DNA of 64,000 bases, taken from NCBI RefSeq assembly GCF_003334315.1, contig NZ_QOWR01000025.1. One strand, written 5' to 3'. The translations under genes were made by a program, and so were the position numbers. This document shows, in pieces, positions 61,547 through 63,003 of this stretch (positions are counted from its first letter, which is position 1; each line of letters opens with the position of its first letter). The notes beneath the pieces were generated by a model. It saw only the letters and a program-made list of their open reading frames with translations. It had not been told where the DNA came from and searched no databases. The DNA is from Escherichia coli (lineage in GTDB: Bacteria; Pseudomonadota; Gammaproteobacteria; Enterobacterales; Enterobacteriaceae).

Positions 61547-61605
61547 GCTATGATTAGCCGCTATTTTTTTGTCCTGAATGATGTTTGACACTACCGAGGT
61601 GTACT

Positions 61606-63003
61606 ATTTTTACCCGAGTCGCTAATTTTTGCCGCAAGGTGCTAAGCCGCGAGGAAAGCGAGGCTGAACAGGCAGTCGCCCGTCCACAGGTGACGGTGAT
61701 CCCGCGTGAGCAGCATGCTATTTCCCGCAAAGATATCAGTGAAAATGCCCTGAAGGTAATGTACAGGCTCAATAAAGCGGGATACGAAGCCTGGCTGGTT
61801 GGCGGCGGCGTGCGCGACCTGTTACTTGGCAAAAAGCCGAAAGATTTTGACGTAACCACTAACGCCACGCCTGAGCAGGTGCGCAAACTGTTCCGTAACT
61901 GCCGCCTGGTGGGTCGCCGTTTCCGTCTGGCTCATGTAATGTTTGGCCCGGAGATTATCGAAGTTGCGACCTTCCGTGGACACCACGAAGGTAACGTCAG
62001 CGACCGCACGACCTCCCAACGCGGGCAAAACGGCATGTTGCTGCGCGACAACATTTTCGGCTCCATCGAAGAAGACGCCCAGCGCCGCGATTTCACTATC
62101 AACAGCCTGTATTACAGCGTAGCGGATTTTACCGTCCGTGATTACGTTGGCGGCATGAAGGATCTGAAGGACGGCGTTATCCGTCTGATTGGTAACCCGG
62201 AAACGCGCTACCGTGAAGATCCGGTACGTATGCTGCGCGCGGTACGTTTTGCCGCCAAATTGGGTATGCGCATCAGCCCGGAAACCGCAGAACCGATCCC
62301 TCGCCTCGCTACCCTGCTGAACGATATCCCACCGGCACGCCTGTTTGAAGAATCGCTTAAACTGCTACAAGCGGGCTACGGTTACGAAACCTATAAGCTG
62401 TTGTGTGAATATCATCTGTTCCAGCCGCTGTTCCCGACCATTACCCGCTACTTCACGGAAAATGGCGACAGCCCGATGGAGCGGATCATTGAACAGGTGC
62501 TGAAGAATACCGATACGCGTATCCATAACGATATGCGCGTGAACCCGGCGTTCCTGTTTGCCGCCATGTTCTGGTACCCACTGCTGGAGACGGCACAGAA
62601 GATCGCCCAGGAAAGCGGCCTGACCTATCACGACGCTTTCGCGCTGGCGATGAACGACGTGCTGGACGAAGCCTGCCGTTCACTGGCAATCCCGAAACGT
62701 CTGACGACATTAACCCGCGATATCTGGCAGTTGCAGTTGCGTATGTCCCGTCGTCAGGGTAAACGCGCATGGAAACTGCTGGAGCATCCTAAGTTCCGTG
62801 CGGCTTATGACCTGTTGGCCTTGCGAGCTGAAGTTGAGCGTAACGCTGAACTGCAGCGTCTGGTGAAATGGTGGGGTGAGTTCCAGGTTTCCGCGCCACC
62901 AGACCAAAAAGGGATGCTCAACGAGCTGGATGAAGAACCGTCACCGCGTCGTCGTACTCGTCGTCCACGCAAACGCGCACCACGTCGTGAGGGTACCGCA
63001 TGA
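61606..63003 (+). CDS. pcnB: Poly(A) polymerase I
   Basis: ORF-track 61585..63003 begins at a TTG; documented initiation is at the in-frame AUU (61606..61608, [11 protein letters not shown]...) preceded by GAGG; nucleotidyltransferase motif (GGGVRD) and basic C-terminal tail. Confidence 0.93.

Follow-up and report, generated by a model that had tools for sequence, protein, structure and literature searches.

The AUU initiation codon of pcnB, the poly(A) polymerase I gene, in an Escherichia coli contig and its conservation in Enterobacteriaceae

The pcnB gene of the analyzed Escherichia coli strain starts, with a probability that we estimate at about 0.94, at the AUU codon located at positions 61606–61608 of the window, i.e., of the whole 64,000-nucleotide stretch of contig NZ_QOWR01000025.1 (assembly GCF_003334315.1) under study; this codon is served by a Shine-Dalgarno (SD) sequence, is poorly decoded and keeps poly(A) polymerase I (PAP I) scarce, the TTG triplet upstream in the same frame being accidental. 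The enzyme marks RNAs for degradation, governs the copy number of plasmids of the ColE1 and R1 types, and is lethal to the cell in excess. The assignment is based on the geometry of the start region, its conservation, the exclusive SD pairing of the ATT, the point at which coding constraint sets in and the identity of the locus to that of K-12. The use of the AUU in vivo and its limiting effect on expression are taken from the literature via secondary citations, and are supported by these together with our comparative evidence. The AUU start of pcnB has been textbook knowledge since 2002, and, because the window sequence is identical to that of K-12, its confirmation here adds nothing new.

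The pcnB CDS together with 120 nt upstream of it was 100% identical at the nucleotide level to the K-12 MG1655 locus b0143, so the experiments performed with K-12 apply directly to the window. In the RefSeq/PGAP records, as well as in the K-12 reference (NC_000913.3), the gene is annotated as a 1398-nt CDS, the first base of which corresponds to position 61606 of the window and which encodes 465 amino acids. The region was matched in 5425 of 5426 complete E. coli genomes, and a 65-nt start region was identical in 5417 of these 5425; one of the eight variants was inspected, and it carried a C to T substitution at 61604, within the spacer between the SD and the start. The identity of the CDS to that of K-12 and the match of residues 28–442 to the chains of PDB entries 3AQK, 3AQL and 3AQM (E about 1e-284) define the product as PAP I, a class II nucleotidyltransferase; the crystallized constructs begin at residue 28 and are uninformative on the N-terminus.

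The matching RefSeq records list the genes in the order sfsA-dksA-gluQRS-pcnB-folK, and folK (HPPK) follows pcnB even in distant relatives. The K-12 locus shares the ATT, the SD and the 465-residue product with the studied strain and shows no difference in the start region; the sole difference lies downstream, where folK is followed by IS1 instead of yadN. This copy of IS1 is inverted and carries its InsB-like ORF on the minus strand. It occupies positions 63612–64000 and starts about 130 bp past folK; the folK-IS1 junction was present in only 54 of the 5426 complete genomes. Two further peculiarities of the neighboring genes were observed. The ATG of folK overlaps the pcnB stop codon (ATGA, 63000–63003) and possesses its own SD (-6.2 kcal/mol), the essential folK sitting right behind a deliberately poorly translated gene. 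The start of gluQ differs between the K-12 reference (927 nt, from 60620) and the PGAP records (897 nt, from 60650), SD pairing being predicted only for the ATG at 60620 (-6.3 vs +0.3 kcal/mol).

The first-pass annotation, made from the sequence alone, had noted that the ORF track opens pcnB at TTG 61585 and had placed the actual start at the ATT. Both statements are borne out: in the program-made ORF list a 472-aa ORF begins at this TTG, and the RefSeq and K-12 annotation, the conservation and the SD pairing described below agree on the ATT. A scripted frame check placed the TTG and the ATT, 21 nt apart, in the frame of pcnB, which is closed by TGA 61579–61581 one codon 5' of the TTG. The two ATGs (61578–61580 and 61581–61583), which had been described as out of frame, are indeed both in frame +2, and the ORF they open is just 15 codons long, ending at 61625. 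The GAGG reported upstream of the ATT is present (61596–61599), but its distance to the ATT is 6 nt (TGTACT) and not 8 nt; the SD is better taken as the hexamer GAGGTG followed by a 4-nt spacer. Similarly, the remark that pcnB lacks an in-frame ATG is correct for the 5' region but not beyond it, the earliest in-frame ATG lying at 61759, i.e., at codon 52 counting from the ATT. The features of the region are collected in Table 1.

Table 1. Features of the pcnB start region and coding sequence (window coordinates).
Feature	Position	Strand	Basis
Promoter-like sigma-70 site TTCTCA-17-TATGAT	61526..61554	+	Consensus scan; overlaps the gluQ end
In-frame TTG picked by the ORF finder, judged a non-start	61585..61587	+	26/80 species; no anti-SD pairing
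Shine-Dalgarno sequence GAGGTG for the ATT	61596..61601	+	80/80 species; -7.2 kcal/mol
SD-to-start spacer, 4 nt, freely variable	61602..61605	+	10 variants in 80 species
pcnB initiation codon ATT (AUU)	61606..61608	+	RefSeq and K-12 CDS start; 80/80 Enterobacteriaceae
pcnB CDS, 465 codons plus stop, poly(A) polymerase I	61606..63003	+	Identical to K-12 b0143
Near-frozen block, codons 2-10 (+4..+29), peptide FTRVANFCR	61609..61634	+	Third-position entropy; N-terminal motif alignment
In-frame GTG, codon 12, would give 454 aa; judged a non-start	61639..61641	+	No SD

The sigma-70 consensus scan yielded one TATGAT site against 0.4 expected, and the GAGCTATGATTAGCCGC block of this promoter-like region recurs 5' of pcnB in most of the 80 enterobacterial species compared (see below). 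The major pcnB promoter, pB, was placed upstream of the ATT (PMC2939334), and the predicted site is a candidate for it. Since the promoter-like site belongs to a conserved upstream block, both the TTG and the ATT would be carried on the mRNA. The TTG also makes up the first three bases of TTGACA (61585–61590), a perfect -35 hexamer; no acceptable -10 element was seen 16–18 nt downstream of it, and the promoter scan reported none there. The out-of-frame 15-codon ATGATG uORF (61578–61625) overlaps the SD and the start of pcnB. As a regulator it was rejected, its ATGs having no SD (+1.5 and +0.4 kcal/mol) and not being conserved outside Escherichia; it is probably incidental.

Among the three rival starts, only the ATT has an SD partner: the energy of the duplex formed with the 3' end of the 16S rRNA was -7.2 kcal/mol for the ATT, +0.4 kcal/mol for the TTG and +1.9 kcal/mol for the GTG at codon 12. 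The value for the ATT ranks among the best 1.3% of background positions and is comparable to that of folK. In the literature the ribosome-binding site of pcnB is termed 'poor', as opposed to the computed energy, the 4–6-nt spacer and the invariance of the site in 80 species. Given such a decent and invariant SD, the weakness may lie almost wholly in the codon; that is, the brake on pcnB translation may be essentially the AUU itself, or else its context.

The comparison set comprised the pcnB loci of 80 Enterobacteriaceae species with 87–100% protein identity. Both the ATT and the GAGGTG at -10..-5 were invariant in all of them, and the 4-nt spacer between the two took ten different forms (column entropy up to 1.0 bit), so the invariance of its neighbors is not due to a lack of divergence. 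An in-frame ATT would be trivial by chance (one codon in 64), and it is the conservation that raises this one above chance. The TTG at -21 was found in only 26 of the 80 species, and in 43 of them no in-frame ATG, GTG or TTG occurs at all between the upstream stop codon and the ATT. On the 5' side of the SD, these loci differ by indels of non-triplet length, and the codon just before the ATT would encode any of five amino acids (T, I, P, A or N). From codon 2 to codon 11, the amino acids are invariant, and all five variable codons differ only at synonymous third positions. The unconstrained codon before the ATT and the exclusively synonymous changes after it indicate that constraint of the coding type begins exactly at the ATT. 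The only canonical start common to all 80 species is the GTG of codon 12. No frame-restoring difference that would create an in-frame ATG start was detected in the 80 loci or in the one inspected of the eight E. coli variants.

More distant PcnB proteins were collected by searching 1.84 billion representative proteins and then retrieving the corresponding DNA. The ATT is kept in four further relatives with 55–62% protein identity, and ATC occupies the place in one with 54%. The arrangement GAGGTG-N4-ATT is preserved in L085, which has a 1.08-Mb genome, and L092 (both 62%), and also in L086; L090 (55%) carries GAGGAT followed by ATT ATT ACA AAA and encodes IITKVINLYHRLF, and in L091 (54%) the homologous codon reads ATC. 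At 45–51% identity, canonical codons, ATG in L087 and L088 and GTG in L089, directly precede the homologous motif (MLIIKKLFKKIF, MIRKLIKVFTRK and VNTIITFIKKLL, respectively). This basic-hydrophobic motif is located at the extreme N-terminus of the distant PcnBs and aligns with the E. coli peptide beginning at the ATT, which argues that the position of the N-terminus is old and that the AUU is a trait of the enterobacterial lineage. Judging from these sequences, the AUU of pcnB appears to be confined to close relatives. A statement attributed to Binns and Masters, as quoted in PMC3561954, holds that many homologues in Proteobacteria may also begin at AUU, and the occurrence of the AUU in the enterobacterial lineage agrees with it as quoted.

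The starts of pcnB in these relatives are frequently mis-called despite the conserved ATT or ATC and the SD: among L085, L086, L090, L091 and L092, L085 alone has the ATT as its annotated start, in NCBI. The start was called at an upstream TTG at -39 in L086 (1201/1240), at an upstream ATG located 27 codons 5' of the ATT in L090 (51/132) and at a downstream ATG in L091 (729/801), and the NCBI record of L092 calls a downstream GTG homologous to codon 12 (765/801).

The vicinity of the start codon displayed one more peculiarity. Across the 80 species, the segment +1..+29 hardly varies, synonymous sites and a rare CGA at codon 4 included, with rare variants in just three columns; ordinary third-position variation returns at +30. 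The third-position entropy of codons 2–11 was 0.20 bits, compared with an average of 0.95 over the gene, and none of the 419 windows scored lower; the folK and gluQ controls from the same loci showed no dip at their 5' ends (1.17 vs 1.19 and 1.16 vs 1.23, respectively). Such a pattern suggests that the pcnB initiation region is under an extra, possibly undescribed, constraint in cis, and we regard the block as a putative result of selection that is specific to pcnB and acts on the sequence context of its weak start codon. Whether the SD and the frozen +1..+29 segment form a discrete cis element that acts beyond protein coding and tunes the use of the AUU (e.g., with growth rate) is a more speculative matter, and we consider this rather unlikely; such an element might bind S1, Hfq or an sRNA, provide IF3-sensitive docking of the 30S subunit, or consist in a weak hairpin between the SD and codons 3–5. 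The 101-nt start region folds no better than its shuffled versions (z = +1.42), and an Rfam search with the start region gave no match at E <= 1. A weak hairpin is predicted at 61593–61619, in which the SD (CCGAGGUG) pairs with codons 3–5 (UACCCGAG) and the AUU falls within a 9-nt loop; its energy is -4.7 kcal/mol in E. coli and from -3 to -6.6 kcal/mol overall, and the prediction recurs in almost every one of the 80 species. The stem being invariant, covariation is almost absent, and the hairpin, being weak as well, was not adopted as a mechanism. That an internal promoter accounts for the frozen block was rejected too, loose sigma-S sites aside: the promoter scan found none there, and the published promoter pS1 lies further downstream.

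The alternative that survives best accepts the AUU as the main start of the full-length protein and adds a shorter isoform initiated at GTG codon 29 (61690) or, via the sigma-S promoter pS1, at ATG codon 52 (61759). In PMC2939334, pS1 was described as an active promoter inside the gene, located downstream of the ATT and accompanied by a putative SD and AUG, and two anti-PAP I bands noted there on western blots leave room for such an isoform. Codon 29 (61690–61692), which is GTG in E. coli, is ATG in 70 of 78 related species, and in L091 this ATG is preceded 6 nt upstream by an AAGAGG SD and was chosen by the gene caller as the start of the protein, so that codon 29 may act as a second start in certain lineages. 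On the other hand, SD pairing in E. coli is only weak at codons 29 and 52 (-2.6 and -2.9 kcal/mol, respectively), pS1 is active under special conditions only (PMC2939334), the second western band could reflect cleavage of the N-terminal leader (PMC9764084), and a start at codon 52 would drop part of the chain seen ordered in the crystals, which begins at residue 28. Taking both sides into account, we hold dual initiation to be quite improbable.

Initiation at the GTG of codon 12, which would give a protein of 454 residues and turn the segment from the SD to +33 into a regulatory element of the 5' UTR, appears barely credible. The invariance of this GTG in all 80 species, the nucleotide conservation of +1..+29 in excess of coding needs and the annotated start of L092 at the homologous codon speak for it; against it, the GTG has no SD of its own, the invariant SD being spaced for the ATT, the variable codons between 2 and 11 change synonymously as coding sequence does, and such a start would delete the motif whose homologue stands at the very N-terminus of distant PcnBs with canonical starts.

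The TTG start, in which a 472-aa protein would contain the ATT as an ordinary internal isoleucine codon, is favored by the canonical character of the codon, by the longest ORF that it opens, by a UUG initiation codon stated in the introduction of PMC3561954 (citing Mohanty and Kushner, 1999) and by the length of 473 aa given for PAP I in PMC9764084, but we dismiss it as extremely unlikely, since the TTG lacks an SD, is missing from most of the species, stands in a segment with non-triplet indels and an unconstrained -1 codon, finds only non-homologous counterparts in the upstream calls of L086 and L090 and is not the start in the curated reference annotation.

We thus return to the AUU. In the proposed sequence of events, the GAGGUG located 4 nt upstream of the AUU would place the ribosome at 61606–61608; the AUU would be poorly decoded by the initiator tRNA and discriminated against by IF3; few PAP I molecules would be produced per mRNA, and an enzyme toxic in excess dose would be kept scarce, the TTG being presumably an accidental in-frame triplet of the 5' UTR. 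Weak pairing with the initiator tRNA and proofreading by IF3 would lie behind the poor efficiency of this AUU, as in the case of infC. Discrimination by IF3 is established for infC and for AUU reporters, and we infer that IF3 is involved at the AUU of pcnB as well.

That the AUU start limits the translation of pcnB was reported by Binns and Masters (2002, Mol Microbiol 44:1287; PMID 12068810), according to the papers that cite it. In the relevant passages of PMC2939334, PMC3561954, PMC5499595, PMC4245954, PMC9764084, PMC4447247, PMC2830850 and bioRxiv 10.1101/063800 this start is treated as established, and the increase in pcnB expression upon replacement of AUU by AUG is credited to the same work in PMC2939334, PMC3561954, PMC9764084 and PMC4447247. 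The suggestion of the first-pass annotation that a poor start codon keeps the level of PAP I low is supported by these citations. The cell contains approximately 30–50 molecules of PAP I, and its overexpression is toxic (PMC3561954); AUU reporters initiate at about 1–2% of AUG (bioRxiv 10.1101/063800). Independent evidence of initiation at the TTG was not found in the literature, the lone 'UUG' remark being contradicted by the Discussion of the same article, which says AUU (PMC3561954). Likewise, a literature search for start-site profiling data on pcnB returned none: a Ribo-RET preprint made no mention of pcnB, and pcnB occurred together with retapamulin only in a study of S. aureus. A 17-residue N-terminal leader of PAP I was reported to be cleaved after translation (PMC9764084), so N-terminal sequencing of the mature protein may not discriminate between the starts.

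The closest parallel to pcnB is infC, encoding IF3, the only other E. coli chromosomal gene confirmed to be initiated at AUU, and in both genes the weak codon limits expression. In infC, the AUU serves as a feedback sensor through which IF3 represses its own AUU-dependent initiation, whereas the codon of pcnB appears to set a low ceiling only. To our knowledge, no infC-like feedback has been described for pcnB. The two genes also differ in their distribution, since infC starts at AUU or AUC in essentially all bacteria (PMC5499595), in contrast to the pcnB homologues at 45–51% identity with their ATG or GTG. A rare ATT start attenuates a level-critical protein, as in pcnB, in the case of ebpA of Enterococcus faecalis (PMC4447247); the gene and the organism are unrelated, and the analogy concerns the mechanism only.

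The AUU start is one of the brakes on the level of PAP I in the cell. The infC and pcnB genes were named as the only confirmed non-canonical starts of E. coli (bioRxiv 10.1101/063800), and, as one of only two confirmed AUU starts of this organism, pcnB serves genome annotators and studies of start-codon selection as a standard test case. For annotation the lesson is that mechanical ORF callers miss the ATT start of pcnB.
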